From NCBI GenBank assembly GCA_018818105.1, contig JAHISK010000130.1, positions 1 through 58,822 of the forward strand: 58,822 nt of DNA. The letters are read 5' to 3'. The DNA comes from Candidatus Omnitrophota bacterium. GTDB lineage: Bacteria > Omnitrophota > Gorgyraeia > Duberdicusellales > 4484-171. Every line of letters starts with the position of its first letter. Within the stretch, counting starts at the first letter, position 1. Shown here in pieces: positions 4,553-58,614 of the stretch. The notes below the pieces were generated by a model that was not told the DNA's origin, did no database searches, and saw only the letters and a program-made list of their open reading frames with translations. The position numbers and the translations under genes were made by a program.

Positions 4553-4582
4553 CTATGGACTATCGACTATGGTCTATGGACT
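4553..4582. repeat. Heptamer array CTATGGA/CTATCGA/CTATGGT/CTATGGA overlapping the feoA stop
   Basis: Four 7-nt units; same family as 42864-42958. Confidence 0.8.
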
Positions 4583-4811
4583 TTTCCACAGGTTCTACCA
4601 TTACTTTTGAAGCCATACCAACACCTAACGCAACCTGCGTACGGCCCATCGTCACAACTACCGGGCCTCGCCAGGAAGAACCAGTTATTTTCTTTACCAC
4701 CATACCTTCTTTTACCCCAAGATTATGTAAGCGGTCCTTTAAATTAGTTCCACCTTCCACACTAATCACCTTAGCAGAACTGCCTGTTGCTAATTTATCT
4801 AAACTAATCAT
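4560..4811 (-). CDS. feoA: FeoA
   Basis: RLHNLGVKEG, GPVVV, VALG..MA motifs; directly upstream of feoB. Confidence 0.93.
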   Translation of the reverse strand: MISLDKLATGSSAKVISVEGGTNLKDRLHNLGVKEGMVVKKITGSSWRGPVVVTMGRTQVALGVGMASKVMVEPVEKSIDHSR

Positions 4812-4823
4812 ACCCTTTTATAT

Positions 4824-5852
4824 TTATAATCCCATCAAATAAAGCCCATACCCAATAACCAACCCTATCGCGAGATTAAATAATTTCACCCAAATACTAG
4901 CTTTTACACTGTGCGAAAGTAAGGGGATTATACCATGTCCATCTTGGACTATACAAGAAGTAAATAACACCGAAAATGGGATTATACCCTTAAAAAACAT
5001 TATAACAAAAATCAAATGAGGCCCGCTATCCGGTATAATTCCTACCAAAGCGGCAATAAGCAACACATAAACCAGATGATTCTTTACAAACACCTCCAGA
5101 TTAAAAAATGTTGATCCTGTTTCTATTAATAAAAACGCGAAGAAACTCCATAACAATATTCGCCAAAGATGTTTTTTAACTATATGTTCCCATATATGCT
5201 CATGAAGATAGTGTTCTGAAACTGTCCCCACGATAAACAATGCTATGCTCATTAAAGACACAAAACTCCATCGTTCCCATCCCCACTCTTGTGGCCCTAA
5301 AGCACCGGTAATAAAGGTATAAAGAAAAAAAACAAATAACGCGATTAATAAAAATCGGCTAAATGATAATCTTTTCAAAACTGTAAATATTTCTTTTATT
5401 CCTAAAGAATATTGGTGATCTTCTACATGAATAGCGCAAGCCCCACAATCACAGGGATCCCGCCATTTAAACTTTTTCATCATTTTATCGACAATAAAAG
5501 CGCCGCAAACGCCCACGACAAATAATAAACCATGAATAATCAACGCTTTCTTAGGAAACAACCCAAACATAACAAAGGAAGCATCTCCGCTAGTAGCAAG
5601 CATTGCCGCGGCAAGCGCGCCAAAAGAAACTAATCCTCTCACATAAAACGAGACCACCATAAAAGCGCCTAAACATCCAGGAATCACACCCAGAAAAGAA
5701 GCAATAACATACTGACGAAATCTGCCCCCCTTTATAACCCCTGTTAACCTCCCCGCGGTTAAAACATTCATATAATCAATAAGCATCATCATCACAAACA
5801 CAAACGACGTTACCATCAACCCATGATTGAAACTATGACTTATTATTTCCAT
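4824..5852 (-). CDS. Putative manganese/metal transporter (arsenic-efflux-like, multi-TM)
   Basis: LGVIPGCLGAF, ATSGD, EHYLHEHIWEH, IPDSGPH, QDGHG motifs; co-oriented with feoAB. Confidence 0.75.
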   Translation of the reverse strand: MEIISHSFNHGLMVTSFVFVMMMLIDYMNVLTAGRLTGVIKGGRFRQYVIASFLGVIPGCLGAFMVVSFYVRGLVSFGALAAAMLATSGDASFVMFGLFPKKALIIHGLLFVVGVCGAFIVDKMMKKFKWRDPCDCGACAIHVEDHQYSLGIKEIFTVLKRLSFSRFLLIALFVFFLYTFITGALGPQEWGWERWSFVSLMSIALFIVGTVSEHYLHEHIWEHIVKKHLWRILLWSFFAFLLIETGSTFFNLEVFVKNHLVYVLLIAALVGIIPDSGPHLIFVIMFFKGIIPFSVLFTSCIVQDGHGIIPLLSHSVKASIWVKLFNLAIGLVIGYGLYLMGL

Positions 5853-5889
5853 ATACCATCCTCCCTATCAATTATCAGCTTCTGCAAAA

Positions 5890-6020
5890 AATAAACAATA
5901 GACAAAATCCAAATTACAAACAATACACAAATTCAAATATACAATTTACAAATAAAGAAATTCTTCGGGTTTTATTGTATATTTTATCCCTTTGTCTATT
6001 GTTTATTGTAATTTGTGATT
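5890..6020. repeat. Imperfect inverted repeat built from ~7-nt units (caaatta/taatttg type)
   Basis: ataaacaatagacaaa / tttgtctattgtttat arms, plus caaattacaaa / ttgtaatttg. Confidence 0.7.
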
Positions 6021-6041
6021 TTCATATAAATTTCAACAGTA

Positions 6042-10218: not shown

Positions 10219-10257
10219 TATAAACACCTCCTTATTTTTTTGCTCCACAAAAAAATA

Positions 10258-10342
10258 GAGCATTGGAGCATTAGACCATTTAAACATTAGAAAAAATAAA
10301 AAAATGCCCAATGCGGTCTAATGCTCCAATGTTCAAATGCTC
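10258..10342. repeat. Octamer-period inverted repeat (gagcattg/caatgctc family) in the 5' leader of the beta-propeller gene
   Basis: Left arm gagcattg-gagcatta-gaccattt-aaacatta; right arm ctaatgct-ccaatgtt-caaatgct. Confidence 0.75.
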
Positions 10343-10372
10343 AAAAATAGAAAATTTTACCCTCTCATATAA

Positions 10373-10402: not shown

Positions 10403-10526
10403 AAAATATTTAAATTTTTTACAAGTATAAAAGTATAAACTTCCCCACACCTAAAAATCTAAATAATTATCCCCAAAGGTAATTTTCTTGAAAAATGATA
10501 GATAATGACGTTTTGGCAATAAAAAG

Positions 10527-10599
10527 TGCCGAGGAAGGGAGTTGAACCCCTGACGCAGGGATTTTCAGTCCCTCGCTCTACCGCCTGAGCTACCTCGGC
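10527..10599 (-). tRNA. tRNA-Phe(GAA), CCA not encoded
   Basis: GCCGAGG/CCTCGGC acceptor stem, D-arm GCTCAGGCGGTAGAGC, anticodon arm AGGGA-CTGAAAA-TCCCT, GTTCAAC T-loop. Confidence 0.97.
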
Positions 10600-13987: not shown

Positions 13988-14163
13988 TTTTTTTAAATTT
14001 TTTTGAAAAATGTACTGCGGAAGGTTTTTTCTCGAATTACCCTATTCTTCCTTGACCCTTGACCCAGAATCATTTTAAATTTTTAAATATTATTTCTTTT
14101 AAATGCTAATTTTAAAATGTTAATTGTAAATTTAAAATTGCCGCCCCTTGACCCTACTAATAT

Positions 14164-14742
14164 CTACAATCGACTTTTAAAATGGCGGGAGATATCTTTA
14201 TCTTTATCTTTATCTTTATCTTTATCTTTATCTTTATTTTTATCATGAGAATGGCGACGCCAAGAATCAAGCACCATAATTAGGGTACGACCACCCTCAC
14301 TTTCAAACGACCAGCGTATACCCAAAATAAGCGTAGCGACTAAAAACTGAATGAAATATTTAGGCGCAAAAAATGATAAAAGAAACGAAATAATCATACC
14401 AATAAAAAAAATTCTTTTTCTCATTATTCCACCCTTATTAACTTCTTTATCCTTCCCTATTCCCAACGCTAATTTTGTCCTATTAATTAATTTTCGCGGC
14501 ACCTGATCAAACCGGCGTTTCTTATGCATTACCTGCGCTAAAGAAGCTATATTAAGCCGTCGTAAACAAAAAACACAACCAGCAATATGATACTCAATAT
14601 CCTGACACCTCTCCTTACTTAATTTACCACCCAAATATTCTAGCAAAGCCTCATCATCATAACAATCAGAAGAGCTAACGTCTTTACTAAACTCTACATT
14701 CGTTTTCAAATATTTCTTAATTAATTCGTTTATCTTATCCAT
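14164..14742 (-). CDS. Zinc-binding (ZAS, zf-HC2) anti-sigma factor with two TM helices
   Basis: HIAGCVFC (HxxxCxxC), preceded by LLEYLGGKLS; downstream of the ECF sigma. Confidence 0.85.
   Translation of the reverse strand: MDKINELIKKYLKTNVEFSKDVSSSDCYDDEALLEYLGGKLSKERCQDIEYHIAGCVFCLRRLNIASLAQVMHKKRRFDQVPRKLINRTKLALGIGKDKEVNKGGIMRKRIFFIGMIISFLLSFFAPKYFIQFLVATLILGIRWSFESEGGRTLIMVLDSWRRHSHDKNKDKDKDKDKDKDKDISRHFKSRL
14194..14244. repeat. In-frame hexamer microsatellite (ATCTTT)x7 plus a degenerate unit, encoding a DK repeat
   Basis: Read directly; protein reads DKNKDKDKDKDKDKD. Confidence 0.9.
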
Positions 14743-15903: not shown

Positions 15904-16090
15904 GGTATTGTCAAAAGTTTCTTGTTTTTTTAAACTCTAAATCCTAAACACTAAACTCTAAATAAATCAAAAACATCAAACCCTAAACTAAAAACATTAA
16001 TAAATACAGTGTTTTCTCTTAAATTATCTTGTTTTAGATTTTGTGTTTTTCTCATTTGGGTTTATTTAGAGTTTAGGATTTAGTGTTTAA
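15904..16090. repeat. GGTATTGTCAAAA end followed by a heptamer hairpin (ctaaact/atcctaa family)
   Basis: Arms aaactctaaatcctaaacactaaactctaaataaa / tttatttagagtttaggatttagtgttt. Confidence 0.75.
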
Positions 16091-16225
16091 TGAAACTCAG
16101 ATAATATTCTAAGGTAATCTTGATTTTTTTTCATAGTGCCACCTTAATTATCTTTTAAGAACTAAGCATACTATCGAATAAATATTTAAAAAGCTATCCA
16201 CGGAAAGACCAAAGAATAAAATTAA

Positions 16226-16873: not shown

Positions 16874-17012
16874 TATATTTTATTTGGCATTTGGCAAAAA
16901 GAAAATGTCAATAGTTAATTAGTTAACTCCGTCCCCTATTTTTTATATTTTATTTGGCATTTGGCAAAAAGAAAATGTCAATAGTTAATTAGTTAACTCC
17001 GTCCCCTATTTT
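16874..17012. repeat. Perfect 69-bp tandem duplication (16874-16942 / 16944-17012)
   Basis: Read directly; period 70; each copy contains AGTTAACTCCGTCCCCT. Confidence 0.92.
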
Positions 17013-17697: not shown

Positions 17698-18078
17698 TTA
17701 TTTCTCCGCTAAAACTCTACTTATAGCATCGAGGAGATCTTCCCTGAAAACAGGTTTTGCTAAAAGGTGATAATTGCCCGCTTTTTTTATCATCTGTTCA
17801 TCTTCTTTTGTGTTAAGGCCGGTTAAGAAAATTATAGGAATAGCATAGGTCAAAGAATCTTGTGAAAGAATTTGAGAAATTTCTCCTCCCATCATATCAG
17901 GAAGAATAATATCTAGAATAATCAAATCCGGCTTAGAATTTTTCGCTAACTCGACAGCCTCTTTTCCGCTAGTAGTAGCAATCACTTCATAATTAGCACC
18001 GCTTAATATCTTTTCTATAAACGTAAGAATCGCTTGATCATCATCTACTATTAGTATTTTTTTTATATTATTTGCCAT
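17698..18078 (-). CDS. Single-domain response regulator (paralog of 16226..16606)
   Basis: ILIVDDD, LIILDIILPDMMG, FLTG, AKP. Confidence 0.92.
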   Translation of the reverse strand: MANNIKKILIVDDDQAILTFIEKILSGANYEVIATTSGKEAVELAKNSKPDLIILDIILPDMMGGEISQILSQDSLTYAIPIIFLTGLNTKEDEQMIKKAGNYHLLAKPVFREDLLDAISRVLAEK

Positions 18079-18180
18079 CTTTTACAAGAAAATTCATTTA
18101 GGCGAATTATTTAGATTTTCAGTGGTATAGAAAATCTTATAATTCCCAATACCGTAAATTATCACTAATTTTTCAATCTG

Positions 18181-18375
18181 TCAAGATACTTTCGGCTTAT
18201 CAACAAGAGCTTTTTCAATTAAAATTCTTAATTTATTAACTAACATTCTCGGCAAACGAAATTGAGAAGTCAATGTTGGCGTTGAAATCACAAACTCAAA
18301 CATATTCGGATTATCTTTAACTTTACGGATAGATACTTCCATACGAAATCCACTACTACTCATTGTCACCTCCAT
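18181..18375 (-). CDS. Small hypothetical protein (start may be ATG 18363)
   Basis: GGAGG lies inside the annotated 5' end, before the second Met; protein-like composition. Confidence 0.6.
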   Translation of the reverse strand: MEVTMSSSGFRMEVSIRKVKDNPNMFEFVISTPTLTSQFRLPRMLVNKLRILIEKALVDKPKVS

Positions 18376-18379
18376 CTTA

Positions 18380-18463
18380 AACGAAGGACGAGATACGAAA
18401 GACGATGGACGAAAAATAAAACTCTCTTCATTCGTCCTTCATCCTTCTTCCCTCGTGCTTCGT
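18380..18463. repeat. Heptamer hairpin (ggacgaa/ttcgtcc family)
   Basis: acgaagg acgagat acgaaag acgatgg acgaa / ttcgtcc ttcatcc ... ctcgtgc ttcgt. Confidence 0.75.
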
Positions 18464-18464
18464 T

Positions 18465-20339
18465 TTAATAATCTTTTAGCGCTTTCTCCAACACCGGATT
18501 AGTTATCCCTAATTCTTTAGCTTTCTTATAATTGACGCCAGCTAATTTAAAATTATTCTTTCTCAAATATATCACCGCTAAATTATTATAGGCTTCGGCG
18601 TAGCTGGAATTATTTTTTATCGCTTTTCGATACGCTGCCACCGCCCCCTGATCTCTATCAAAATTAACATAAATATTACCTAAATTATAATAAGCGTCAG
18701 CATCATAAGGATTAATTTCTACCGCCTTCCGCAGAAAAAATAAAGCCTTATCATTATCGCGCGTATAGGTATGTATTATCCCTAAATTACAGTACGCGCC
18801 GGCAAAAAAAGGATTATTTTTTATTGCCTTTTCATAAGCGCTTATTGCCTTTCCATAATCTTGGTTATACATATATATATTACCTAGATTATAAAACCCT
18901 TGAGCGTAATTAGGGTCTATTTCTATTGCCCTCGTGTAAAATTTGAACGCTTTTTGAAAATCTTTCTTACTACTGTAAAGAAGCCCTATGTTATTATATA
19001 TATAAGCGTCTTTAGAATTAAGTTTCAAAGCTATACCATAAGCCTCTAACGCTTTATCAAAATCACCCCTTTCTTTATACGCCACGCCAAGATTATTATA
19101 AAGGCGGCTACTGGAAGCATATTTTAAAGTTTGTTGGTACAAAGTTACAGAATCTCGCCAATATCTATTTTGCTTAATTGTTAGAAAAGAACAAGCCCCT
19201 ACTATAATTAAAGATATTACTACGGCTATTATTATTTGTTTTCGACCTTTAAAAAGAACGCTTATTATCTTAGCCGCGATAAGAAAAAAACCAATAGACG
19301 GCAAATACAGCCAGTGTTGAGCCATATAAGCGTTAAGGGGATATATATTAGAAACCGGTAGAATTGTCACAAAAAAACACATTATAGAAAAAAACAAAAA
19401 AGTATTTTTTCGTTTCATTACGGCAACAACCAATAAAAACAATGATAAAAAAATACCCATTATACATTTAGGGTCAAACACAGAAAATAATTTGTTTCCA
19501 TATTCCATATGAAGATTAACCGGCGCGATTAATAATTTTAGATACCGCGTTATAGCAACAAAAAAACCCGGTATTCGCCGCCACATAGTTGTCACACTAT
19601 CACCCGCGGATAACATATCTTTTAAAAATGTAATTCGCAACAAACAATATCCGACCGCAATAACCACTAAGGAGAAGAAAAGCTTGGTGTTAATCTTTCT
19701 TTTAAAAGTGTAATGGTAAAGCAATAATATAATCGGTAGAATTAAGCTATTTTCTCTAGTCAATAAAGCTGCCGCGTAACTTATTATTACAATTATATAA
19801 TTATTAATATTTATCTTTTCCGATGATTGCCGAAGGCTTGATCTTATATAAAAAATCGAGCAAACTATCATAAATACGGCCGCCGCCGAATCCGCCCCCC
19901 CTGATATATAAGTAACAGCTCCTGTATGTATAGGATGAACTACAAACAATAACCCCGTAAAAAAAGAAATTAATCTATCTTTAAAAATTAATAAACTCAA
20001 CCAAAAGATACCGATAGCAACACAAATATGACATAGAATATTTAATAAATGATAACCCCTTACATCTGCCCCCCATAAAGCATAACCTACCATATAAGAC
20101 ACTATCTGCAGAGGGCGATAAGAATTTGATTGAACACCGGCGCCTTCTCCGATACCGCGCGTAAACACTTTATCTAAATGCGCGAAACTGCGTATATACA
20201 TATTATCTTTAATCAATACCATATCGTCCCAAACAAACTCCCCGTTGATCGCGTTATGATACGATACCAACCCCGCGATTACTATCGCCGCCATTGACAA
20301 TATGTATATCCATCTTTTTCTTATAACGATCTGTTTCAT
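18465..20339 (-). CDS. TMTC-like GT-C glycosyltransferase (protein O-mannosyltransferase-like) with C-terminal TPRs
   Basis: FVWDD, YRPL, HPIHTGAV, LYLPSIG, multiple TM helices, about 6 TPR repeats. Confidence 0.85.
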   Translation of the reverse strand: MKQIVIRKRWIYILSMAAIVIAGLVSYHNAINGEFVWDDMVLIKDNMYIRSFAHLDKVFTRGIGEGAGVQSNSYRPLQIVSYMVGYALWGADVRGYHLLNILCHICVAIGIFWLSLLIFKDRLISFFTGLLFVVHPIHTGAVTYISGGADSAAAVFMIVCSIFYIRSSLRQSSEKININNYIIVIISYAAALLTRENSLILPIILLLYHYTFKRKINTKLFFSLVVIAVGYCLLRITFLKDMLSAGDSVTTMWRRIPGFFVAITRYLKLLIAPVNLHMEYGNKLFSVFDPKCIMGIFLSLFLLVVAVMKRKNTFLFFSIMCFFVTILPVSNIYPLNAYMAQHWLYLPSIGFFLIAAKIISVLFKGRKQIIIAVVISLIIVGACSFLTIKQNRYWRDSVTLYQQTLKYASSSRLYNNLGVAYKERGDFDKALEAYGIALKLNSKDAYIYNNIGLLYSSKKDFQKAFKFYTRAIEIDPNYAQGFYNLGNIYMYNQDYGKAISAYEKAIKNNPFFAGAYCNLGIIHTYTRDNDKALFFLRKAVEINPYDADAYYNLGNIYVNFDRDQGAVAAYRKAIKNNSSYAEAYNNLAVIYLRKNNFKLAGVNYKKAKELGITNPVLEKALKDY

Positions 20340-20344
20340 AATTT

Positions 20345-20385
20345 GTCCTCCGTCCTCCGTCTTCAGTCTTCAGTCTTCGATCTTT
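20345..20385. repeat. Heptamer array gtcctcc/gtcttca (single arm)
   Basis: gtcctcc gtcctcc gtcttca gtcttca gtcttcg fills the aroC-TMTC gap. Confidence 0.75.
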
Positions 20386-20387
20386 GA

Positions 20388-21539
20388 TCATCTTTTAACT
20401 GTTTTTACATAATTCTGATAATTCGTTTTTATTTCTTTCAATGTGTCTTGCCCAAACTTATCCAGAAATAATTCTGTTACAGCAATAGCCGCCATAGACT
20501 CAGCAATAACTCCGCAAGCGGCAACCGCGACGGTATCAGCCCTCTCTACCATAGCCTTTTCTTTCTTTCCAGTAATAAGATCAACAGAATCAAGCGGTTT
20601 TCTTAAGGTCGCAATGGGTTTCATTGCTGCCCTAAAAACAATAACTTCGCCATTAGACATCCCGCCTTCTATGCCGCCGGAATTATTTGTTTGGTGATAA
20701 ATCCCTTTACCATGCTCAGAATAAATAGCGTCATGGGAAGCGCTTCCCTTTTGTTTGGCATACTCAAACCCCAACCCATTCTCAACGCCTTTGATAGCGG
20801 GAATACTCATAAGATAATAGGCTACTCTCGCGTCTAATCTCCTATCAAAATGCATGAAGCTGCCCACGCCGGGAATAAGGCCTTCTATCCAAACTTCTAC
20901 GAGTCCCCCTAAACTATCTTTGCTTTCATCGGCTTTCTTTATTTGAGAAATCATCTCTCTTTCAGCGTCTCTATCAATACAGTTTAATTTTGAATGTTCA
21001 GTTTTAGTTATTATTTCTTCAATATTTTTAGGTTTCTTTTTACTAATAACCCTACCCACACTTACCGTAAAACTTGCTACTTTTATATTAAATTTAAGAA
21101 GAAATTGTTTACAAACCGCGCCGACGCAAACTCTTGCCACAGTTTCTCTAGCTGAAGACCGTTCTAAAATATTTCTCACGTCATTTTCCTGATACTTAAT
21201 GGCCCCGGCAAAATCAGCATGAGCAGGACGAGGAATAGTTAACGCTTCTAAATCATCTTTCTTTCGCGAAAAAATTCTAGCGTCTCTGTTCTTAACCAGC
21301 ATTGTTATCGGACTGCCTAAAGTAACCTTATTCCGCATCCCGGAAACAATCTTAACTTTATCTTCTTCAATTTTCATTCGCCCGCCACGGCCAAAACCAG
21401 ACATTCTCCGTTTAAGCTCATCATTAATAAAATCCTGGCATATAGTTACTCCTTTAGGAAAACCTTCTAATATTGCCGAAATATATTCACCATGAGACTC
21501 ACCGGCAGTTAATATCCTCATAATATTTTCCTCCTTCAA
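20388..21539 (-). CDS. aroC: Chorismate synthase
   Basis: TAGESHG, PRPAHAD, ERSSARET, GGIEGGMSNG, MKPIATL. Confidence 0.96.
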   Translation of the reverse strand: MKEENIMRILTAGESHGEYISAILEGFPKGVTICQDFINDELKRRMSGFGRGGRMKIEEDKVKIVSGMRNKVTLGSPITMLVKNRDARIFSRKKDDLEALTIPRPAHADFAGAIKYQENDVRNILERSSARETVARVCVGAVCKQFLLKFNIKVASFTVSVGRVISKKKPKNIEEIITKTEHSKLNCIDRDAEREMISQIKKADESKDSLGGLVEVWIEGLIPGVGSFMHFDRRLDARVAYYLMSIPAIKGVENGLGFEYAKQKGSASHDAIYSEHGKGIYHQTNNSGGIEGGMSNGEVIVFRAAMKPIATLRKPLDSVDLITGKKEKAMVERADTVAVAACGVIAESMAAIAVTELFLDKFGQDTLKEIKTNYQNYVKTVKR

Positions 21540-21540
21540 A

Positions 21541-22353
21541 TTAAAAGATCAACGCCAAAATCCTATTCCCCCACAAAAAATAAACTAATGTCGCTAAAGA
21601 TAAATACGGTAAATAGGGAATAAGATGCGTCTTCTTAAAAATAAGCGCGCCTACGGCATAAATCAAACCGAAAAACGGAGCGACAAAAAACACAAGGATT
21701 ACCGCTTTTACACCCAGAAAAGCGCCTACCATTCCCATAAAATCAACGTCGCCTAACCCTAAAGATTCTGTTTCCCCCTCTATTGATTCTTTTTTACGTA
21801 TGGCTAAATAAATATTTAAAAGCGCATCGCCAAAGAGCTTAAAAAGATACGTAAACCCCAACCCAAAAATAAGACCTCTTATAGAGTAATAAATAGGCAG
21901 CGACGTAAAATCCACATCGAATTTCAACAGGCCTACGCTTCGCGTTAAACTAATAACTACCGCGACTGCTATTCCTAAAAAACATAAGTATACCGGAATA
22001 GCAAAATATTTTATATCTATAAAAGAAATAACAATACACAAACAAAAAAGAAAAGCGTATTTTAAAAAGCTTAAAGTTAACCCAAATTTTATGTATAAAA
22101 AAAGAAATAACACTGCCGTAATAAGTTCAACTATAGGATACCTGGGAGAGATCTTTTCTTTACAAAATCGGCACTTACCTTTTAAGAACAAATATCCAAA
22201 GATAGGCACATTGTCATACCATTTAAGAGGTTTTTCACATTTTGGACAAAAAGATGATGGCTGTACAATGGAAACATTTTTAGGTAACCGGTAAATACAA
22301 ACGTTTAAAAAACTACCTAAACAAGCGCCTAAAACAACCATGAAAATATTCAT
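21541..22353 (-). CDS. pilD: Type IV prepilin peptidase
   Basis: GSFLNVCIYRLP, CPKC, CRFC, ISPRYPIVE, GLGDV, IPYLPYL. Confidence 0.93.
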   Translation of the reverse strand: MNIFMVVLGACLGSFLNVCIYRLPKNVSIVQPSSFCPKCEKPLKWYDNVPIFGYLFLKGKCRFCKEKISPRYPIVELITAVLFLFLYIKFGLTLSFLKYAFLFCLCIVISFIDIKYFAIPVYLCFLGIAVAVVISLTRSVGLLKFDVDFTSLPIYYSIRGLIFGLGFTYLFKLFGDALLNIYLAIRKKESIEGETESLGLGDVDFMGMVGAFLGVKAVILVFFVAPFFGLIYAVGALIFKKTHLIPYLPYLSLATLVYFLWGNRILALIF

Positions 22354-22374
22354 TTATTTTCTCCTTTTAAATAC

Positions 22375-23450: not shown

Positions 23451-23500
23451 TTAGCATTTTTAATTGATAACTGATAAATGCTAAATTTCATTATTACTTT

Positions 23501-40965: not shown

Positions 40966-42870
40966 TTATCCCCCCGCCCCTACTAACTGTCTGATTTCTT
41001 CTATCTTCTCAAAAGCGGCTTGCTCTCCCTTTCTTATAAACTGCTCAGCTCTATCAAATTCCATCCACCCTCCCACACCACCAAAATCAGGATGAATAAC
41101 CACATCACTGATTTTCAAAGCCCTTTCAATAAACTCCCGTTGCATTGTTTCAATACTTCCAAAAATAAAATCTAAAATATGAAATTTCCTATCACCTTTA
41201 TACCCTCTGATAATCTCTTCTTTCGATGGAGTAATGTTAACAGCAATTATTTTATGAGCTCCGTAATTAAGCAATATCCTTGTAGGAAGAGGATTTAATA
41301 TTCCTCCATCCATAAGAATATCTTTTTTAAACAGCACCGGTTCAAACATTCCCGGCATCGCGCAACTTGCCGCGACAGCTTTATATAGTAACCCATCTTC
41401 CAAAATTTTTGTTTCCCTTCTTATAAAATCAAAAGCAACTATCTTAAGAGTACGCTTTAAATCATAAAAACTCATATCGCCAAAAATACTTTTCAAAATA
41501 TTCTCTAGACGTTTAGCCCTTAAAACCCCCTTAAAAGGGAGAGATATCCCCGTAAAAGGGAATAGACTAAGTTTCTTACTTACCCATTTCACGGCCTTCT
41601 CCATTTCCGAAATTTCAAAACCCGCGGCCCATAACGCTGCCACCAACGCCCCCATACTTGACCCACAAACAACATCAATCGATACATTATTATCTCGCAG
41701 AACTTTTAAAACTCCTATATGAGAAAAAGCGTAAGCGCCGCCGCTGCCTAAAGCTAAGCCAACGACAACCTCTCCTATCTGCCGGGAAATTCTTCTAACC
41801 GCTTTAGAGTAATCATCTACTTTACAAGACGACAACGTGGCATAAATAGGAAAATCTACTAACTTTATTTTTTCTTCCCGGGAAAACTCAACTTTATCAA
41901 ACTCGCTTACAATTAACCTTATTTTGTCCTTATTAAAAGGGTTGATACTCTCTAATTCTTTTATAAAAACGTCGGCCGCTTTCAATTCCTCTTTATTAAG
42001 CGAGAAAATCAAATGCAAAAAGTTAGCCGTATATACAAAATCTGTTAAATTCTGATGTGAAGACGAAGGAACTTCATAAAGAATAAAATGATAATTTTCT
42101 GAAAGAAAATTCAACAACGCCCCAAACCTCGCTGAATCTAATGTTTTTACTAAAAAATAATCAACCTTATCCTTGATAACATACGCGTTAAAACCATCTT
42201 CTGAAACCACGCTTAAGTCCAAAACTTTCTTTGTTTTTTTAACGGGACAGTTGAGACCTCCCTCTACAATTAAATCCTCTAACGAAAATTTACTCTCAAA
42301 AGACAATTCCAAACAAACAACTTCTTTCTTTGTTTGCTCTTTTAACTGCGCGCCTAAATTATACATATACGTTGTTTTCCCCGACGATCGGGGCCCTAAT
42401 ATAGCTATTCTCCTACATTGAAATATCTTTTTAGGATGAGTACGCCGTTTAACTCTCTGAGAAAAAAGGCTAAAAAACTCCGCGAAAAACAGAGGGTACC
42501 CGTTAAGGAATTTCTTAAATTTATCCTTCTCGACCCTCAAAACAAACGATGTCTCAATTGACTTAGTAGTTACTGAATGCGCCTCCGCGGTCAAAATAGA
42601 TATCATGCCAAAGCAAGTACCCCGTTTAAGCAATTCTATTTCAGATTCTACACCCTCAAAATTCGTTATAGCGACAACTCTTCCACTTAAAAGAAGATAA
42701 AAATAATCAGGCGGGTCTGATTCGTTATAAATAACATCTCTATTACTATATTCCTTAACTTCACACAACCTTATAAACTTATCAATTTCTCTATCTTTTA
42801 ATTTATTAAAAGGCGGGATATTACTGACTATGAATTTTATTTCTTTTGTGTCCATATTAATACAGACCAT
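40966..42870 (-). CDS. cNMP-binding + P-loop (MinD/CpaE-like) + patatin phospholipase (NTE-like)
   Basis: cNMP domain (FYLLLSGRV, GTCFG), GPRSSGKTT, patatin motifs LALGSGG, GSSMG, DGG. Confidence 0.85.
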   Translation of the reverse strand: MVCINMDTKEIKFIVSNIPPFNKLKDREIDKFIRLCEVKEYSNRDVIYNESDPPDYFYLLLSGRVVAITNFEGVESEIELLKRGTCFGMISILTAEAHSVTTKSIETSFVLRVEKDKFKKFLNGYPLFFAEFFSLFSQRVKRRTHPKKIFQCRRIAILGPRSSGKTTYMYNLGAQLKEQTKKEVVCLELSFESKFSLEDLIVEGGLNCPVKKTKKVLDLSVVSEDGFNAYVIKDKVDYFLVKTLDSARFGALLNFLSENYHFILYEVPSSSHQNLTDFVYTANFLHLIFSLNKEELKAADVFIKELESINPFNKDKIRLIVSEFDKVEFSREEKIKLVDFPIYATLSSCKVDDYSKAVRRISRQIGEVVVGLALGSGGAYAFSHIGVLKVLRDNNVSIDVVCGSSMGALVAALWAAGFEISEMEKAVKWVSKKLSLFPFTGISLPFKGVLRAKRLENILKSIFGDMSFYDLKRTLKIVAFDFIRRETKILEDGLLYKAVAASCAMPGMFEPVLFKKDILMDGGILNPLPTRILLNYGAHKIIAVNITPSKEEIIRGYKGDRKFHILDFIFGSIETMQREFIERALKISDVVIHPDFGGVGGWMEFDRAEQFIRKGEQAAFEKIEEIRQLVGAGG

Positions 42871-42958
42871 AGACTATCGACTATAGACCATCGTCTACCA
42901 AGCACCAATTCTTCTTAAATATCTTATCTATAGTCTATGGTCAATAGTCTATAGTCGA
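42864..42958. repeat. Heptamer hairpin (agactat/atagtct family)
   Basis: agaccat agactat cgactat agaccat / atagtct atggtca atagtct atagtcg; contains the GH1 stop codon. Confidence 0.8.
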
Positions 42959-44187
42959 TTCTCTCTACATATCTTAGCATAAGTATTAGCGAAAGGTTTA
43001 ATTTTTCTCTCAAAATTATTATAATCTACTTCCAGCAACCCAAATCTAGGACCGAATCCTTTATCCCATTCAAAATTATCCAGTAAAGACCACCACAAAT
43101 ACCCTCTTATATCTAAGCCTTCCTCAATTGCTTTAGATACCATTTTAAGGTGCGCGATTAAATACTCTTGATAAAACGCGTCATTACTTTCGGCAGTACC
43201 ATTTTCCGTAATTATTATTGGTAAAGAGTACTTTTTCAATTTCTTAAGAACCCTATAAAACCCTTGAGGGGAAACATACCACCCCAAATAATTACGGTGT
43301 TCTTTATGCGTTATATGCGCGCACTCATCTCCAAACGGCCATTTAGCTTTTACATATTCTTTACAGTAGTAATTTACTGCCAGATAATCTAAGCATCGCT
43401 TCTTACTTAAATAATCATACACAGGAAAATTAAAAACAGTTTCTCTAATAAAAGCATAAAAATTATTCACCCCAAAATTATAGCTGGGACACGGAGAAAA
43501 ACCGCGCATATTTTTTGACAAGGAAATTTCAGGAGTTATCTTCTCTCCTTCATATATTCTTTTTATTTCACTATACCCTTTAATATAAGCGGCAATAATA
43601 TTCTTTAAAACCTTTAAAGCGAGTTTAAAATCTTTACTTCCCGGAGGCCAAATCCCGAGAACAAAACTATTATAAATATAAACTAAAGGCTCATTAAAAA
43701 TAAGCCAATACTGAACTTTACCTTTCAACTCTTTGACTAGACGCCTAAGATATTTTAGAAAAAAATCAATATTTTTAGAATCAGCCCACCCCCCTTTATC
43801 GCTAAACCAAATAGGATTAGTAAAATGATGCAGTGTTATAAAAGGTGTTAACCCCTCATCTAAAAGAGAATCAACTACTTGACTATAATGATTTAATTCT
43901 TGATCTGAAATGACGAGTTCTCGCGGATTAATTCGTGACCACTCTATAGAAATTCTTAAAGAATTTAAATTAAGGCTGTTGGCTAACTGAAAATCTTTCT
44001 TAAATAACTGATAATGATTACAAGCATCACAGGCCCCTTCTAAGCCTTTATCTTTCTCCCATAAATACCAGTCAGAATTATGATTTTTACCTTCACATTG
44101 ATAACTAGAAAGGGCGGCTCCCCAGAAAAAATTAGGCGGCAATTTTACATCCATTGATATTATAAAATATAAAATTCCAAATAACAA
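42949..44187 (-). CDS. Glycoside hydrolase family 1 (start probably ATG 44154)
   Basis: FFWGAA.SSYQCEG, RISIEWSRI, TLHHF, NEP, ITENG, WSLLDNFEW. Confidence 0.93.
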   Translation of the reverse strand: MLFGILYFIISMDVKLPPNFFWGAALSSYQCEGKNHNSDWYLWEKDKGLEGACDACNHYQLFKKDFQLANSLNLNSLRISIEWSRINPRELVISDQELNHYSQVVDSLLDEGLTPFITLHHFTNPIWFSDKGGWADSKNIDFFLKYLRRLVKELKGKVQYWLIFNEPLVYIYNSFVLGIWPPGSKDFKLALKVLKNIIAAYIKGYSEIKRIYEGEKITPEISLSKNMRGFSPCPSYNFGVNNFYAFIRETVFNFPVYDYLSKKRCLDYLAVNYYCKEYVKAKWPFGDECAHITHKEHRNYLGWYVSPQGFYRVLKKLKKYSLPIIITENGTAESNDAFYQEYLIAHLKMVSKAIEEGLDIRGYLWWSLLDNFEWDKGFGPRFGLLEVDYNNFERKIKPFANTYAKICRENRL

Positions 44188-45005: not shown

Positions 45006-45186
45006 CAGCCAAAGGCTGACCAGCCTCCGGCTGGAAATCTCAAATCACAAGCACCAAATTACAAATAAATCTCAATATCCAATGATCAAAATTCCAAACG
45101 ATACGAAAACATTAATGTTTTGGTCATTTGAAAATTGAAATTTGGAGCTTATTTGTTATTTGGCGCTTGTAATTTGTTATTTTCAT
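45006..45186. repeat. CAGCCAAAGGCTGACCAGCCTCCGGCTGG double hairpin plus a family A hairpin
   Basis: The same 29-mer (1 mismatch) occurs at 58448-58476. Confidence 0.85.
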
Positions 45187-45209
45187 CCAAAAATGAATAT
45201 AGTTACTTA

Positions 45210-49120: not shown

Positions 49121-49332
49121 TATATTGTCTAAAGTCTCCTAAAATCCCAAATAACAATTTCCAAATTCCAATCATCAATAACCAATTACCAAACTTACAA
49201 TTTATTCTTAATTTCATTGAATTCTTTGGTTATTTGAATTTGGTTATTGGTCATTGTTTGGTTATTGTTTCTTGTATCTTGGTTATTTCTTCCTTATTAA
49301 TCATTATTTGATGCTTGGAATTTGTTATTTTA
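49121..49332. repeat. Heptamer hairpin (taaccaa/ttggtta type) with a degenerate TATTGTC left end
   Basis: caaataacaatttccaaattccaat... / ttggttattggtcattgtttggttattgtttcttgtatcttggttatt. Confidence 0.75.
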
Positions 49333-50404: not shown

Positions 50405-50579
50405 AAATTCCAAATAACAATTTCCAAATCCCAAATAATTTTCAATTACCAAAATTCAAAACAATATAGAAAACATTTATGTTTTGGTCATTTTAAATTT
50501 GGAATTTGGCGCTTGAAATTTGTTATTTATTATTTTCATATGGTTCTTGTTATTTGTTATTTTCATACAAATTTTGATA
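50405..50579. repeat. Family A hairpin with a degenerate right end TTTTGATAT
   Basis: Similar to 28540-28640 and 58500-58614. Confidence 0.75.
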
Positions 50580-52250
50580 TTAGATTTCCTGGGTAACCCG
50601 AAAAATTTCCGACAAACTGGTTATTCCCTTAATCAGTTTATCCATACCGTCTTGGCGTAAAAGGGTTGCCCCCTCACTCACAATATATTCTCTAATTTCT
50701 CTGGAGGAACCTTTTTTATCAATTAGTTTTTTTACGCCGTCGTCGGGAATAAGAATTTCAAAAATACCCACGCGCCCAGAATAGCCGGTATCGCGGCATT
50801 GACGGCAACCAGTCTGACGGTAAAATTTGTAAGAAGCTTTCTTTTCTATTTTTAATTCATCCAGCACTTCCTTATCAGGCTTATACTGCTCCTTGCACTG
50901 CGCGCATAAAACTCTTACCAGGCGCTGAGCAACTATACAGATTACCGATGATGAAACCAAAAAAGGCTCTATCCCCATATCTACCAGACGGGTAATGCCT
51001 GAAGCAGCATCATTAGTATGCAATGTGGAAAAAACTAAATGTCCCGTTAGCGCGGCATGAATAGCAATTTCGGCAGTCTCGCGATCGCGAATCTCTCCAA
51101 TCATAATTACATCCGGATCCTGGCGCACAATAGAACGCAGTCCCGAAGCAAAAGTAAGCCCTGCCTTAACATTCACCTGAGACTGACGCGCCCGTTTAAT
51201 CTCATACTCTATAGGATCCTCCATTGTGATAACATTTTTCTCAACGGCATTAATTTTATTAAGAGCGGCATAAAGAGTAGTCGATTTACCGGAACCAGTC
51301 GGCCCGGTCACCAAAATGATTCCATGCGGTTTATGAATAATCTGCTCAAATACCGGCAAATCTCCATCGGATAAACCTAAATCTTCCAAACAAAAAAGGA
51401 GCCGCGTTTTATCGAGAATCCTTATAACTAAATTCTCTCCGTACATAGTAGGAAACGTTGAGATTCTTAAATCCACGTTTTTACCATCTATATGCGTTTG
51501 AATTCTACCGTCCTGAGGCAGGCGTTTTTCCGCGATATCCATACTTGCCATAATTTTTATACGCGAAATTATTGCCGCTTCATACTTTTTAGGAAGCCGC
51601 GGCATATCATGCAAAATGCCGTCTATCCGCAACCGGCAGTAAAAATGCGGTCCTTGCGGCTCCAAATGGATGTCGCTCGCTCTCATCTCCACCGCCGTAG
51701 AAATCAGATTATCAACAATGCTGACTACCGGCGCCAAACTGGCCACCCGCGCGGAATCCAAGCCGGTTATCTCTATGTCTTCTATCTCTGAAAGAATCGG
51801 CATAAACTCTGTCTTGCGATACTCTTCTTCGATACGCTTACTTATCCGCGAAGGAACGGCAAAAACAGGCCGAATCCGCTGATTTATTAATTTCTGGATT
51901 TCATCAATCGTGCCGAGGTCTAAAGGATTAAACATTGCTACTGTAAGTACATCCCCTCTTTTAAAAAGCGGCAAAACCTGATATTTTACGGCTAAATCAA
52001 AAGGCAAAGATTTAATAATCTGAGGTTCTAAGTTATAGTTTTCTAAATCCACATAGGCAAATCCCAGTTGTTCGCTTAAACTTTGCGCCACCTGCTCCTC
52101 AGAAGCGAATCCTTTTCTAACTAAAATCTCGCCTAAAAACTCGCCGGTTTCATGATGCTGCTTCAAAGCCTCATTTAACTGACTGCTGGTGATTAACTTT
52201 TTATTAACTAATAATTCGCCTAACCGCATTTCCGCCATTTTACACCTCAT
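50580..52250 (-). CDS. pilB: Type IV pilus/T2SS assembly ATPase PilB/GspE with an N-terminal MshEN-like region
   Basis: RLGELL, ASDIHLEP, RLPQDGR, GPTGSGKSTT, RQDPD..MIGEIRD, TGHLVFSTLHTN, Cys tetrad. Confidence 0.92.
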   Translation of the reverse strand: MRCKMAEMRLGELLVNKKLITSSQLNEALKQHHETGEFLGEILVRKGFASEEQVAQSLSEQLGFAYVDLENYNLEPQIIKSLPFDLAVKYQVLPLFKRGDVLTVAMFNPLDLGTIDEIQKLINQRIRPVFAVPSRISKRIEEEYRKTEFMPILSEIEDIEITGLDSARVASLAPVVSIVDNLISTAVEMRASDIHLEPQGPHFYCRLRIDGILHDMPRLPKKYEAAIISRIKIMASMDIAEKRLPQDGRIQTHIDGKNVDLRISTFPTMYGENLVIRILDKTRLLFCLEDLGLSDGDLPVFEQIIHKPHGIILVTGPTGSGKSTTLYAALNKINAVEKNVITMEDPIEYEIKRARQSQVNVKAGLTFASGLRSIVRQDPDVIMIGEIRDRETAEIAIHAALTGHLVFSTLHTNDAASGITRLVDMGIEPFLVSSSVICIVAQRLVRVLCAQCKEQYKPDKEVLDELKIEKKASYKFYRQTGCRQCRDTGYSGRVGIFEILIPDDGVKKLIDKKGSSREIREYIVSEGATLLRQDGMDKLIKGITSLSEIFRVTQEI

Positions 52251-52260: not shown

Positions 52261-52714
52261 ATTCTGTCAGAAATTTAATCACCAATAACCAAGATACAAG
52301 ATACAAGATACAAACAAATTCCAAATTACAAGCACCAAATTACAAATAAATCTCAATACTCAATGATCAAAATTCCAAACAATACCAAAATACTGATAAA
52401 AGATACAAGTTACAAACAAACCCCATAAAAATATCAAAAATTAAAACGTAAATATCAAAACGACATATTAAAATGTAAATTTACGTCCGCCTTTTACTAC
52501 TCTCTTAACTTTGATTTTTTCATTGTCACTTCGCATTTTAATATTTAATCTTTAATTTTATTTTCTTCCTTAATTAAAACCAAAAATTCGTTTGGTGATT
52601 GTATCTTGTTCATTGGACTTTGTTTGTATCTTGTTTCTTGATGTTTGGTTATTTCTTTTTGATTGGTCATTATTTGATTATTGTTTCTTGTTTCTTGTTT
52701 CTTGAATCTTTTAA
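52261..52714. repeat. Nested composite of three repeat-hairpin families
   Basis: Outer agataca/tttcttg arms, a family A left arm, and an inner family B hairpin. Confidence 0.8.
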
Positions 52715-56078: not shown

Positions 56079-56220
56079 TATTTTCACCTCCGATTAAATT
56101 ATACCACAACGCGAATAAAAAGCCTCGAATATTTGTGATATCGAGGGTGTGGTAAAAATTCGAGATATGGATGCCGACATTGCCACTGTTGAATTATTTT
56201 CTAAAAAAACAGTTCCGCCA

Positions 56221-56442
56221 TTAAAACGCGTTAAATTCTTCAACGCTAAGCTCAGCTTGTTTCAATAGTTTTTTAAGAATCCCTACACCTAATTCTTTAT
56301 GCTGGGGAACCGATAGCGTATACCGATATCCAATTTTCACAAGCATAACATGAGAACCGGATTGCCGGGCGATTGTCCATCCCGCGCGTTTGAATTTTTT
56401 TACTGCGTCAAATCCTGAACACAACTTAAGATGCCGGCTCAT
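56221..56442 (-). CDS. hicA: HicA-family toxin
   Basis: RQSGSHV, SVPQHKELGVGILKKLLKQA. Confidence 0.92.
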   Translation of the reverse strand: MSRHLKLCSGFDAVKKFKRAGWTIARQSGSHVMLVKIGYRYTLSVPQHKELGVGILKKLLKQAELSVEEFNAF

Positions 56443-56639
56443 ACTGAAACTTCCACTATTTGCGCCCGGCGATGCTTAACCTTGTCATTCATAACCGCTA
56501 TCCAACCCGCAATGGCTTCTTTGATGTTGGCTTTGGCTTCGGCTAAAGTTCTCCCCTGACTCACACAGCCAGGAAAAATCGGTACTTCAGCAACGTAATA
56601 ACCTGTTTCATCTTGCTCAATTATAACTTCTAACTTCAT
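56439..56639 (-). CDS. hicB: HicB-family antitoxin; start revised to ATG 56639
   Basis: EQDETGYYVAEVP.FPGCVSQGRT..EA..NIKEAI. Confidence 0.9.
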   Translation of the reverse strand: MKLEVIIEQDETGYYVAEVPIFPGCVSQGRTLAEAKANIKEAIAGWIAVMNDKVKHRRAQIVEVSV

Positions 56640-56882
56640 ACATTTCACCTCCACACAAATTATATCACAATTTGAATTTATATAAAACGTCTCAAATTTT
56701 AAATTTTCCCTACCGCCATCCCCGCAGTGGCGGCAGGTTTCATTTAGGGCGCGAGATATCGCGCCCGTTTATTTATTATCAAAATACCGTGAAGCTGAAG
56801 GGCCCAAATTCCTAGCGCAATTTTGATTTTCTGAACGCAGTCTATTCATAAAAGAAATTCTTTTTTTCACCTTTTTCACTTT

Positions 56883-58205
56883 TTAAAAGTAAGAAGCTAA
56901 ATACAATGGGTAGCTTCGGACTTTATTAACCGAATCAATGAAAAGATTATTCGCGCTAAAAATTGTTCTGTACTTAGAATTATACCTCTGAGCAAAAACT
57001 TTTAGGCTCTTTGCCTGAGTTACCCAGCCTGATTTAATTTCAATAGGCAAAACATCCCCATTAATTTCTCTTAAAAATTCTACCTCCGCGGATCCTTTTT
57101 TCCAGCAATATAGCTCCTTTACTCCCGAAAAAAGGAATTCCTGAGCCGCAAAGTTTTCCGCGAAGTATCCTTTGTAGGTACCATAGTCATACTCCATAAT
57201 AGACTTTGGAGGCAAGTCGCTTAAAGCCCCTAATAGCCCTGTATCAAAAACATATAGTTTAAAACTGTTTTCCGCGATATGCGCGGAAAAAGGAAGCTGT
57301 CCGCTATTGACAATATGCGCTTTTATAATAAGTCCAGATGAAACTAACCAATCAATGCTCCCGGATAACCTTGAATATCTTCTAACTCCAGGAATAATTC
57401 CTTTAAATTTAAACTTCCCGGCAGAGCCATCTTGTTCCCTTGCCAATCGCGCGGGAATATTACGCCATAATCTTTCAATATGCATAGCATTCTGCTTACC
57501 TGAATGTTTTGCTATATCAGCGATATAAGTTGACAATAAATTATCCTGTTTTTCTCTCACTTTTTGCAGAGCGATAAATAAATCATCTTTGTATTCCCCA
57601 AAAGTTTTAACAATTTCCGGAAGACCTCCTGTTACAAAGTATATTTTTAATTGTTCCCAAAGATGACTGTGAACAATATCAGGGATAGCATCGATTTTCT
57701 TACGGCCTTGAAGGAATTCAAATGATTTCCTATCCCCTGTCCCTGCTAAAAACTCTTCAAACGACATAGGAAACATATTTAAAAATTCAACCTTCCCAAC
57801 AGGAAAAGATTCATCTGACAACTGAATTCCCAATAGCGAGCCAGCCGCGCAAATAGCTAATTCAGGTAATTCTTCCTGAAAATATTTTAGGCTTGTTAAT
57901 GCCCTGGGAGCATTCTGAATTTCGTCAAAAATAACAAGGTCTTTTTCTTTATCAATGGAAGCATCAAGATAAAAACTTAAATCCCTAAGTATGTTTTGAG
58001 GAATAAGATCTCCTTCAAAAATTTTAGCTACTTGTTTATATTTCTCAAAATTTAAATAATGTGCTTGAGAAAAACATTCTTTGCCAAAAGCCTGGAGAAT
58101 GTAAGTTTTCCCAACCTGACGCGCCCCTTTAAGAATAAGAGGCTTTCGGTCTTTTTTATTCTTCCACTCTATTAACTTACTCCAAATATCTCTTTTCATA
58201 ATCAA
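56883..58205 (-). CDS. AAA_14 ATPase with DUF4143
   Basis: GARQVGKT, FDEIQ, AAGSLLG, FPVGKV, PMSFEEFL, GGLPE, DTGLL, AEVEF...PIEIKSG. Confidence 0.9.
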   Translation of the reverse strand: MIMKRDIWSKLIEWKNKKDRKPLILKGARQVGKTYILQAFGKECFSQAHYLNFEKYKQVAKIFEGDLIPQNILRDLSFYLDASIDKEKDLVIFDEIQNAPRALTSLKYFQEELPELAICAAGSLLGIQLSDESFPVGKVEFLNMFPMSFEEFLAGTGDRKSFEFLQGRKKIDAIPDIVHSHLWEQLKIYFVTGGLPEIVKTFGEYKDDLFIALQKVREKQDNLLSTYIADIAKHSGKQNAMHIERLWRNIPARLAREQDGSAGKFKFKGIIPGVRRYSRLSGSIDWLVSSGLIIKAHIVNSGQLPFSAHIAENSFKLYVFDTGLLGALSDLPPKSIMEYDYGTYKGYFAENFAAQEFLFSGVKELYCWKKGSAEVEFLREINGDVLPIEIKSGWVTQAKSLKVFAQRYNSKYRTIFSANNLFIDSVNKVRSYPLYLASYF

Positions 58206-58395
58206 ATTATGCCATATTTATACACTTTTCGCAAGGACTTTATGTAATTATTGGGCACTTTTTAGCATGTCTTTTCCCAAAAATCTTTAAAGCCACACAC
58301 ATTCAACGGTTTTTGTCTTTGTATTTTGTCGAAACCATTTGGTCACGGCTGATTTGAACGATCCTATAATTATTGGGCACCTCTGAGTAGCGTCC

Positions 58396-58614
58396 GGTAT
58401 TGTCAAAAGGTTAATCACCAATTTTAATAATTTTCAAATTACAAATTCAGCCAAAGGCTGACCAGCCTCAGGCTGGAAATCTCAATATCCAATACTCAAA
58501 ATTCCAAACAATACGAAAACATTGATGTTTTGGTCATTTGAAAATTGGAATTTGTAGCTTATTTGTTATTTGGTGCTTGTAATTTGTTATTTTTATACAC
58601 ATTTTGACATTACC
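58396..58614. mobile_element. 219-bp MITE with IS1-like TIRs and a 9-bp target-site duplication, carrying a family A hairpin
   Basis: TIRs GGTATTGTCAAAA / TTTTGACATTACC (12 of 13 match); flanks GTAGCGTCC (58387-58395) and GTAGTGTCC (58615-58623). Confidence 0.8.

Follow-up and report, generated by a model that had tools for sequence, protein, structure and literature searches.

Heptamer hairpins in the operon spacers of a probable Omnitrophota genome may be gene-less relatives of cassettes that enclose four-helix-bundle genes

Introduction

Short tandemly repeated repetitive (STRR) sequences form hairpins between cyanobacterial genes, such as hupS and hupL (PMC2670836), and a heptamer hairpin is found in P6b of the Nostoc tRNA-Leu intron (PMC3488679). 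Each Xanthomonas genome contains about 185 intergenic GGGAATC arrays, of which 70–75 are in convergent inverted pairs, and array length varies between species (PMC4692102); the paper describing them contains no occurrence of "S23." In Beggiatoaceae, the heptamer TAACTGA forms intergenic direct repeats (PMC4679880). In Coxiella, the intervening sequence (IVS) of the 23S rRNA carries an open reading frame (ORF), homologous to the genes considered below, behind two to three tandem heptamers in the stem, the number varying among strains, and earlier authors proposed a possible role for this ORF in mobility (PMC4990558). Here, we analyze a 58,822-nt stretch of DNA (the window; contig JAHISK010000130.1 of assembly GCA_018818105.1) whose intergenic gaps contain heptamer arrays and hairpins, together with genes encoding four-helix-bundle (4HB) proteins elsewhere in the same genome that lie between arrays of the same kind.

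An earlier note, made from the letters of the window, had listed 22 sites with 7–8-nt repeats and regarded them as empty sites of a mobile or RNA-level excision system defined by periodicity and fold rather than by sequence. We favor, with modest confidence, a different reading, in which the hairpins are mostly gene-less derivatives of an IVS-like cassette bounded by a hairpin and represent several sequence families of one selfish element.

Results

Four-helix-bundle genes lie between inverted heptamer arrays

The window is the entire contig C63 of a 2.03-Mb assembly (157 contigs, 36% G+C, estimated 92% complete). Throughout, gene calls are ORF proxies, group labels of related genomes (such as the same-genus label of G001) are software-assigned, and the related genomes that enter our counts are not independent samples; one genome flagged as unpublished supports none of our claims.

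The genome contains four 4HB genes of family PF05635, and all four have inverted heptamer arrays on both sides. The arm units of these four filled elements are of the AAGGATT, AAGGGTC/AAGGGGC, AAACCAG and ACAAATT types. The earlier note had stated that similar arms flank 4HB genes, and this proved sound both here and elsewhere. As a measure, we compared the two flanks of each gene and scored their best ungapped reverse-complement match, counting 13 or higher as a pass. Within the genome, 26 of 1500 genes passed, all four 4HB genes among them. Passes were also recorded for 17 of 29 4HB loci in 29 relatives, for 10 of 13 loci from two Omnitrophota genomes that bear names and for 24 of 30 from a sample of 30 Cyanobacteriota genomes, drawn from the phylum of a Cyanobium metagenome-assembled genome (MAG); several of the misses are located at contig ends. 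When only loci of these three sets with full flanks were considered, 44 of 55 passed, whereas none of 110 control windows, placed 850 nt away at the same loci, did so.

The arm units vary between genomes, and some have a period of 8 or 9. One cyanobacterium has arrays of its 4HB arm unit at about 25 further places, with 104 matches versus 0 for the reversed pattern. Of 32 Omnitrophota 4HB genes, 29 are co-stranded with both neighbors and none is opposite to both; in the cyanobacterial sample, 15 are on the same strand as their neighbors, 5 are opposite and 5 are mixed. Whole-element RNA folding predicts that the ends of the filled elements pair, with 24–53 pairs between the terminal 75 nt, and the terminal duplex has a z score of −5.5 to −7.7 in three of the four.

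The 4HB proteins belong to TIGR02436 (128 bits) and resemble pentameric XCC0516 of Xanthomonas, the closest solved structure (PDB 2gsc, E 1e-19). They do not score as the Avd protein of a diversity-generating retroelement: scores against the true Avd family of these elements, NF033474, were 37.9 and 50.8 bits, under the cut-off of 80, and no reverse transcriptase (PF00078) was found in the genome.

Heptamer arrays occupy intergenic gaps across the genome

Self-match of intergenic DNA, computed genome-wide, is 0.317 at lag 7 and about 0.29 at neighboring lags, with echoes at 14 and 21; in the same analysis the lag-7 signal is absent from coding DNA. A calibrated detector, which overlooks very degenerate arrays, found 326 lag-7 arrays in 264 kb of intergenic DNA versus 6.7 in dinucleotide shuffles, placing the periodicity well beyond shuffle expectation. 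These arrays are present in 250 of 1228 intergenic gaps. Period 8 is rare, and lag-8 arrays are only mildly enriched (47 versus 12.7 in shuffles). Arrays separated by less than 100 nt make up 109 pairs; 54 of these pair as reverse complements, compared with 9 for a complement-only control and 3 in direct orientation. About one-third of the arrays lie in inverted pairs, which make long hairpins, and 203 are solo arrays that have no partner.

Solo arrays are what one would expect if the arrays were STRR-type simple repeats that grew in place by slippage, acquired inverted partners by template switching and were kept as neutral or mildly useful mRNA stem-loops, with 4HB genes merely sitting in or acquiring such stems. 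Heptamer over-representation and copy-number change in many bacteria (PMC4679880, PMC4692102) and the Nostoc P6b hairpin (PMC3488679) also fit this explanation. However, it leaves the association with one gene family (44 of 55 loci versus 0 of 110 controls) unexplained, and we consider it unlikely in view of the dispersed copies described in the next section.

Hairpins lie 0–30 nt from gene ends, in keeping with the abutting position first reported for them, and occupy the space between a stop codon and the next ribosome-binding site, leaving the latter free. Arrays lie at a median of 15 nt past the stop codon of the upstream gene. In 54 of 63 pairs, purines are more frequent in the first arm than in the second, and Shine-Dalgarno-like cores such as AAGG and GGAG occur there; this polarity reads alike on both strands. 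Position and composition of this kind could be explained if the arrays were periodic mRNA sites at which a cold-shock, S1 or CsrA-like protein, its footprint spanning 7 nt, tunes translation of the neighboring genes, the hairpin masking or exposing the sites, as proposed for the Beggiatoaceae TAACTGA repeats (PMC4679880). Nonetheless, the roughly 100 units would need a non-specific binder, the corresponding genes of G001 manage without the arrays, and both the enclosed gene and the occurrence of identical copies at dispersed places are left unexplained, all of which makes this explanation very improbable. Since 1430 of 1552 gaps are co-directional, a test for enrichment by gap type (p 0.22) is uninformative.

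Inverted array pairs more than 1 kb apart were rejected as real long-range pairs, because direct pairs are equally frequent at such distances; they are hairpins of the same family in neighboring gaps. The apt gene on contig C9 was likewise considered and rejected as element cargo. No Rfam family matched any hairpin, the sole match being a tRNA.

Outside the window, at C152:7946–8433, a hisH-like gene is broken by an AGAAGAC array of five units within the coding sequence. Over the array the reading frame shifts from 0 to 2, and altering the array by a single 7-nt unit would bring the frame back. Directly upstream of the start of this gene lies a complete AGAAGAC-family hairpin.

Gene-less hairpins form dispersed sequence families

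The arms of the four filled elements recur at 8–25 other places in the genome. At three unlinked loci, a degenerate arm occurs with 100% identity over 32 nt, and the 3′ end of the ORF of the C103 element recurs with its arm on C106 (90% identity over 79 nt). Filled and gene-less hairpins are therefore related through shared arms, a relationship that the earlier note had proposed. Its further proposal, that fold and periodicity rather than sequence define the system, is contradicted by these sequence families, whose copies are up to 100% identical. Identical degenerate arms at unlinked loci, with variant units in the same order, could not be produced by slippage in place.

When a profile of 53 4HB proteins was compared with the six-frame translation of the genome, it matched the four genes and one remnant: the loop of the hairpin at C78:10990–11218 codes for the beginning of a 4HB protein, 36 residues long, and then has a stop (E 4e-4). 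From its sequence, this hairpin reads as a decayed intermediate.

Many hairpins have 7–27 similar copies in the genome. One gene-less family, an element of about 190 nt, has 27 copies of 67–83% identity with sharp ends and conserved non-repetitive loops, which also speak against slippage in place. Of its scorable copies, 17 of 18 share one orientation relative to flanking genes. Across 21 copies, pairing holds for 84% of stem cells, versus 30–46% when the partners are slid. As in MITEs, the miniature inverted-repeat transposable elements, terminal inverted repeats are common to gene-less copies and a filled coding element.

On C88, C137, C152, C153 and C48, copies of the 27-copy element are embedded in a second inverted repeat (GGTATTGTCAAAAGTTT ... 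AAATTTTGACATTACC), which suggests nesting, as if one hairpin element had inserted into another's loop.

Related genomes differ in the presence of whole units

Presence/absence polymorphism in orthologous gaps, which the earlier note had suggested looking for, was found. At the orthologous sites of two filled elements in G001, G006, G007 and G010, the neighboring genes are 17–78 nt apart, with neither arms nor gene between them. These armless sites, together with the 4HB remnant in the C78 loop, make gene-loss derivatives likelier than empty target sites, which is how the hairpins had initially been interpreted. Of seven window gaps compared with their G001 orthologs, five have hairpins or arrays that are missing in G001, and one has a different repeat there.

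Whole units that are present in one genome and absent from another are not what slippage in place would predict. That explanation does fit the ilvN-ilvC and ilvC-leuA gaps of 19 relatives, which hold 7–8-nt repeats of unrelated sequence, or none.

Y1 transposases accompany separate repeat families

The genome has eight PF01797 (Y1) matches, seven of them at or over the family cut-off. On either side of the Y1 genes are inverted repeats of their own, without periodicity, which constitute separate dispersed families of 4–23 exact copies, and no Y1-flanking repeat resembles the heptamer arms. The arrangement typical of repetitive extragenic palindromes (REPs), their hairpin-forming doublets (REPINs) and their REP-associated tyrosine transposases (RAYTs), in which a Y1 gene is flanked by the dispersed repeat, is thus not seen for the heptamer arms.

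Transposition of IS200/IS605 elements proceeds through single strands and is tied to the direction of replication. It could be argued that the hairpins are REPIN-like doublets moved in trans on single-stranded DNA by Y1 (IS200/RAYT-type) transposases, with the 4HB gene as a passenger: Y1 matches are present in the genome, and the hairpin shape, intergenic position and 17-to-1 orientation bias fit replication-tied single-strand transposition. But the Y1 genes carry their own repeats, some 100 unit types would depend on just five to eight transposases, and the gene consistently enclosed by heptamer arms, in two phyla, is the 4HB gene. We regard this explanation as quite improbable.

The motif GGGACGGAGTTA, found in the window at 16668, 16924 and 16994, occurs in 23 exact copies across the genome and is also present beside a Y1 transposase gene on C123, as in a REP/RAYT-like system. 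At 16874–17012 it lies within a perfect 70-nt tandem duplication.

Hairpins and arrays of the window

Window genes lie nearly all on the minus strand and form a housekeeping set, including feoB, ilvBNC/leuA, aroC/aroE, lysC, a pilB-like ATPase, GH57 enzymes and response regulators. The closest named relatives of the encoded IlvC are from Candidatus Omnitrophota MAGs (69–70% identity), and the host is not a cyanobacterium but probably a member of the Omnitrophota. The 40 closest genomes available are each 1–2.5 Mb in size, and groundwater metagenomes from several studies contain DNA near-identical to the window.

Tandem Repeats Finder reported period-7 arrays at nearly all the sites first named in the window. 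In a per-gap lag analysis of 21 of the 22 sites, lag 7 was best in 19 gaps and lag 8 at 10258; site 36925 showed no periodicity in this analysis. The claimed 7–8-nt periodicity therefore holds nearly everywhere as a period of 7, with period 8 confined to 10258 and 36925 aperiodic. The description of the sites as mostly long imperfect hairpins holds in part. With a clear hairpin defined as a fold z score of −3 or lower versus dinucleotide shuffles, 13 of 22 sites qualify, at z scores of about −3 to −7.8 (5890, 10258, 15931, 18380, 23428, 26133, 28388, 34741, 38107, 42864, 45040, 49141 and 50405). Folds are weak at 26767 (z −2.6), 58436 (z −2.1, partial stretch) and 4553 (z −2.0), and 14050, 20345, 25043, 34572 and 52280 are one-armed or stemless. 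As for the many unit families, a strict detector recognized 100 distinct canonical heptamer units across the genome, but sites 28388, 45040, 50405, 52280 and 58436 are copies of the 27-copy element and are not independent arrays. The features are listed below, with the strand where one is assigned.

4553–4582: lone array of 4.3 CTATGGA units (ACCATAG family), no partner arm evident; z −2.0.
5886–6021: hairpin whose arm matches the 3′ arm of the filled C103 element at 94% identity over 50 nt; z −5.8/−3.4.
10256–10345: period-8 hairpin of GAGCATTG units, near tRNA-Phe (10526–10599); −36.5 kcal/mol, z −7.8.
14050–14139: 2.3 CCTTGAC units (AAGGGTC family, single arm) and a 14-nt array, TTTAAAATGCTAAT; z −0.5/−0.7.
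15931–16100: hairpin of TAAACTC-type arrays and a partner arm; z −3.6.
18380–18464: ACGAAGG-type hairpin within the spacer from stop codon to next ribosome-binding site, missing at the orthologous site of G001 (same genus); −39.6 kcal/mol, z −5.9.
20345–20378: lone arm of GTCCTCC/GTCTTCA units; z +0.4.
23435–23500: small AT-rich hairpin of AATTAAC-type units; G001 is without this gap; z −3.05.
25042–25073: lone arm of 4.6 ACTAAAC units, an insertion relative to G001.
26132–26217: TAGCGTA-type hairpin in the ilvN/ilvC gap, where G001 has a different, 14-nt array; −33.6 kcal/mol, z −6.6.
26765–26930: AAATATC-type arrays with a weak stem; z −2.6 (minus strand).
28388–28662, minus strand: two adjoining copies of the 27-copy element with AAATTCC/AAATTAC arms; z −5.7/−5.2.
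34571–34602: lone arm of 4.6 AAGGGTC units, the unit family of the arms of the filled element at C138:37432–37821; z −1.1.
34736–34795: AGATTGC-type hairpin in a divergent gap; −21.6 kcal/mol, z −3.6.
38107–38230: hairpin of 3.7 AGTTCGG units opposite 12.6 perfect CTACGAA copies (38143–38230); z −5.6.
42864–42959: ACCATAG/ACTATCG-family hairpin, the family also of the C78 hairpin with the 4HB remnant; −37.5 kcal/mol, z −6.1.
45035–45205, minus strand: copy of the 27-copy element; z −6.6/−7.5.
49142–49281: AAATTCC/CAATAAC-type hairpin, with 14 similar places in the genome.
50405–50585, minus strand: copy of the 27-copy element, which served as query.
52277–52710: CAAGATA arrays separated by 360 nt from their reverse complement, with a copy of the 27-copy element nested inside.
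58452–58615, minus strand: copy of the 27-copy element, beside the palindrome AAGGCTGACCAGCCT.

The 12.6 perfect units at 38143–38230 imply recent expansion of that arm and point to ongoing slippage, an observation that favors growth in place at this site.

Several further repeats were noted. The palindrome beginning AAGGCTGACCAGCCT, at 45012 and 58454, directly adjoins two copies of the 27-copy element. Between 28006 and 28672, two other metagenome runs show roughly tenfold the depth of neighboring bins and many loose ends; the element there is multi-copy or common to other organisms in those samples. At 22354–22505, a G+C-rich long-range inverted repeat fills the gap between a prepilin peptidase gene and an aroE-like gene; one of its arms, GGGGCGTCGCTTGCC, has 14 exact copies in the genome, and the orthologous G001 gap measures 3 nt. 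Within the ORF at 14164–14742, a perfect hexamer array of 8.7 TATCTT units (14193–14244) encodes a (Lys-Asp)n tail near the C terminus of a putative anti-sigma-like membrane protein.

Discussion

The architecture, the gene association, the shared arms, one remnant, dispersed copies with defined ends, a fixed orientation, and gain and loss between genomes are all directly supported. If most hairpins are gene-less derivatives of a hairpin-bounded cassette, how might the element live? The full form would be a promoter-less cassette of about 0.5 kb, with a purine-rich 5′ arm of 3–11 degenerate heptamers, an S23p/Avd-like gene (TIGR02436/PF05635) and a complementary 3′ arm, riding in operon spacers between stop codon and ribosome-binding site in the sense orientation. 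It would lose its gene by internal deletion, leaving the arms and a spacer of 7–170 nt, and these short hairpins would persist, multiply and outnumber the full copies as MITEs outnumber their parent transposons. The arms may pair in the operon transcript or in single-stranded DNA. Elements would be copied to new spacers, and the 4HB protein is the only constantly linked candidate for such an activity. Slippage may maintain and expand the 7-nt period, with arms growing and shrinking. The orientation biases fit transcription-dependence and replication-tied single-strand transposition equally, because gene direction is nearly uniform.

Several results weigh against descent of the hairpins from such cassettes. 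A recognizable gene remnant is present in just 1 of 59 strictly defined hairpins, with one weak trace at the DNA level in addition, and most unit families (TAGCGTA, ACGAAGG, AACTACG, AGATTGC and the 8-mer GAGCATTG) have no filled member in this 92%-complete assembly. The 27-copy alignment reveals no target-site duplication, nor did any transposition chemistry come to light, DDE families not having been searched. In 20-kb samples around ilvC, 10 genomes with 2–10 4HB genes have 25 lag-7 arrays in 193 kb and 10 genomes with 0–1 have 6 in 200 kb, but this trend of array density with 4HB count is weak, with large scatter; G008 has 10 4HB genes and no array, and G007 has heptamer arrays, yet no 4HB gene was found there. 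Moreover, metagenome contigs from four runs of three other studies, which cover the hairpins at 18380, 20345, 26133, 26767, 34572 and 34741, are identical across them over 18001–38000. These contigs, from which rare variants drop out, show neither filled/empty nor copy-number variants, and no recent movement was seen, a result that carries little weight.

The RNA-level results count on the same side. Sense folds are stabler than antisense folds by 35 to 17, and G-U pairs number 201 versus 114; however, we rejected this G-U signal as a mark of selection at the RNA level, as composition-matched shuffles reproduce it (−3.05 versus −3.32 kcal/mol, p 0.38). Stems of the 27-copy family, with the structure taken from one copy, have no excess of compensatory changes (4 pairs versus 6.3 in shuffles).

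For the 21 aligned copies, RNAalifold returned no consensus structure. Among public sequencing runs, none from RNA was found to contain the window stretch 18301–28300. The genome yielded neither an RNase III domain (PF14622, PF00636) nor the signature motif, and PF00636 was present in only 2 of 21 genomes searched (this genome and 20 relatives), in both cases in a short ORF of 157–185 aa. The lineage may be without a canonical RNase III, judging from these incomplete genomes, and the absence weighs mostly on the IVS analogy. With no RNase III found and both the G-U signal and covariation at shuffle level, excision or processing as RNA, the second half of the earlier proposal, is unsupported. 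A 23S rRNA, sought as the location of a true IVS, was not found in the assembly, and all copies of the element lie between protein-coding genes.

A broader idea, which we offer tentatively and hold to be doubtful in its full extent, is that TIGR02436/PF05635 genes mark a hitherto unrecognized class of mobile cassettes bounded by inverted short-period arrays, mostly of 7 nt, and residing in transcribed spacers, either rRNA helices (as IVSs) or operon gaps. Gene-less offspring of these cassettes would be the STRR-like heptamer hairpins of cyanobacteria, Xanthomonas and Omnitrophota, and a pentameric Avd-like protein would copy or maintain the arms without a known transposase.

Heptamer hairpins have been catalogued without origin or function, and 4HB proteins outside retroelements have no known role; the tie between gene and arms gives both a testable explanation. 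ORF-bearing 23S IVSs would be recast as a special case of a wider element and, if the 4HB protein is indeed a mobility factor, a new mechanism of DNA or RNA mobility would be involved. The elements occupy about one-fifth of the intergenic gaps in a reduced genome and break assemblies, and they are therefore relevant to annotation and binning of uncultured lineages.

Comparison with known systems

Heptamer hairpins as such, and 23S IVSs that bear an S23p ORF, in Coxiella with heptamers in the stem, are already known. Our literature searches, which left subscription journals largely uncovered, found nothing linking PF05635/TIGR02436 genes to heptamer arrays outside the Coxiella IVS. As far as these searches show, the cross-phylum link between gene and arms, its location in the spacers of operons, the families resembling MITEs and the presence in Omnitrophota are new, and an earlier description elsewhere is possible.

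The Xanthomonas GGGAATC repeats resemble the present ones in being intergenic heptamer arrays in inverted pairs capable of forming stem-loops, but they have one dominant G-rich unit, read as quadruplex-forming (PMC4692102). REP/REPIN–RAYT systems and MITEs share with the elements described here the short dispersed intergenic hairpins, a cognate gene flanked by the repeat, and few full and many short copies. They differ in that the gene enclosed here is no known transposase, the arms are periodic and target-site duplication was not seen; true Y1/REP-like families coexist separately in this genome.

The 23S rRNA IVSs of Coxiella, Leptospira and Brucella have the same plan, an inverted-repeat stem that encloses a sense-oriented S23p/PF05635 gene. 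In contrast to IVSs, the elements here lie in the spacers of operon mRNAs and not in helix 25 or 45 of 23S rRNA, their arms are long arrays of 3–11 units, and gene-less copies number dozens to hundreds. IVS excision is the work of RNase III, the gene for which was not found here.

Cyanobacterial STRR sequences are, like the arrays of this genome, degenerate tandem heptamers in intergenic or transcribed spacers that pair into hairpins. STRR sequences have few dominant units, whereas the present host, from another phylum, has many more unit types (100) in a 2-Mb genome. Both Anabaena/Nostoc PCC 7120 and Xanthomonas campestris possess heptamer arrays together with PF05635 genes. The link to 4HB genes, unreported for STRR sequences in the literature searched, was found here in the Cyanobacteriota sample.

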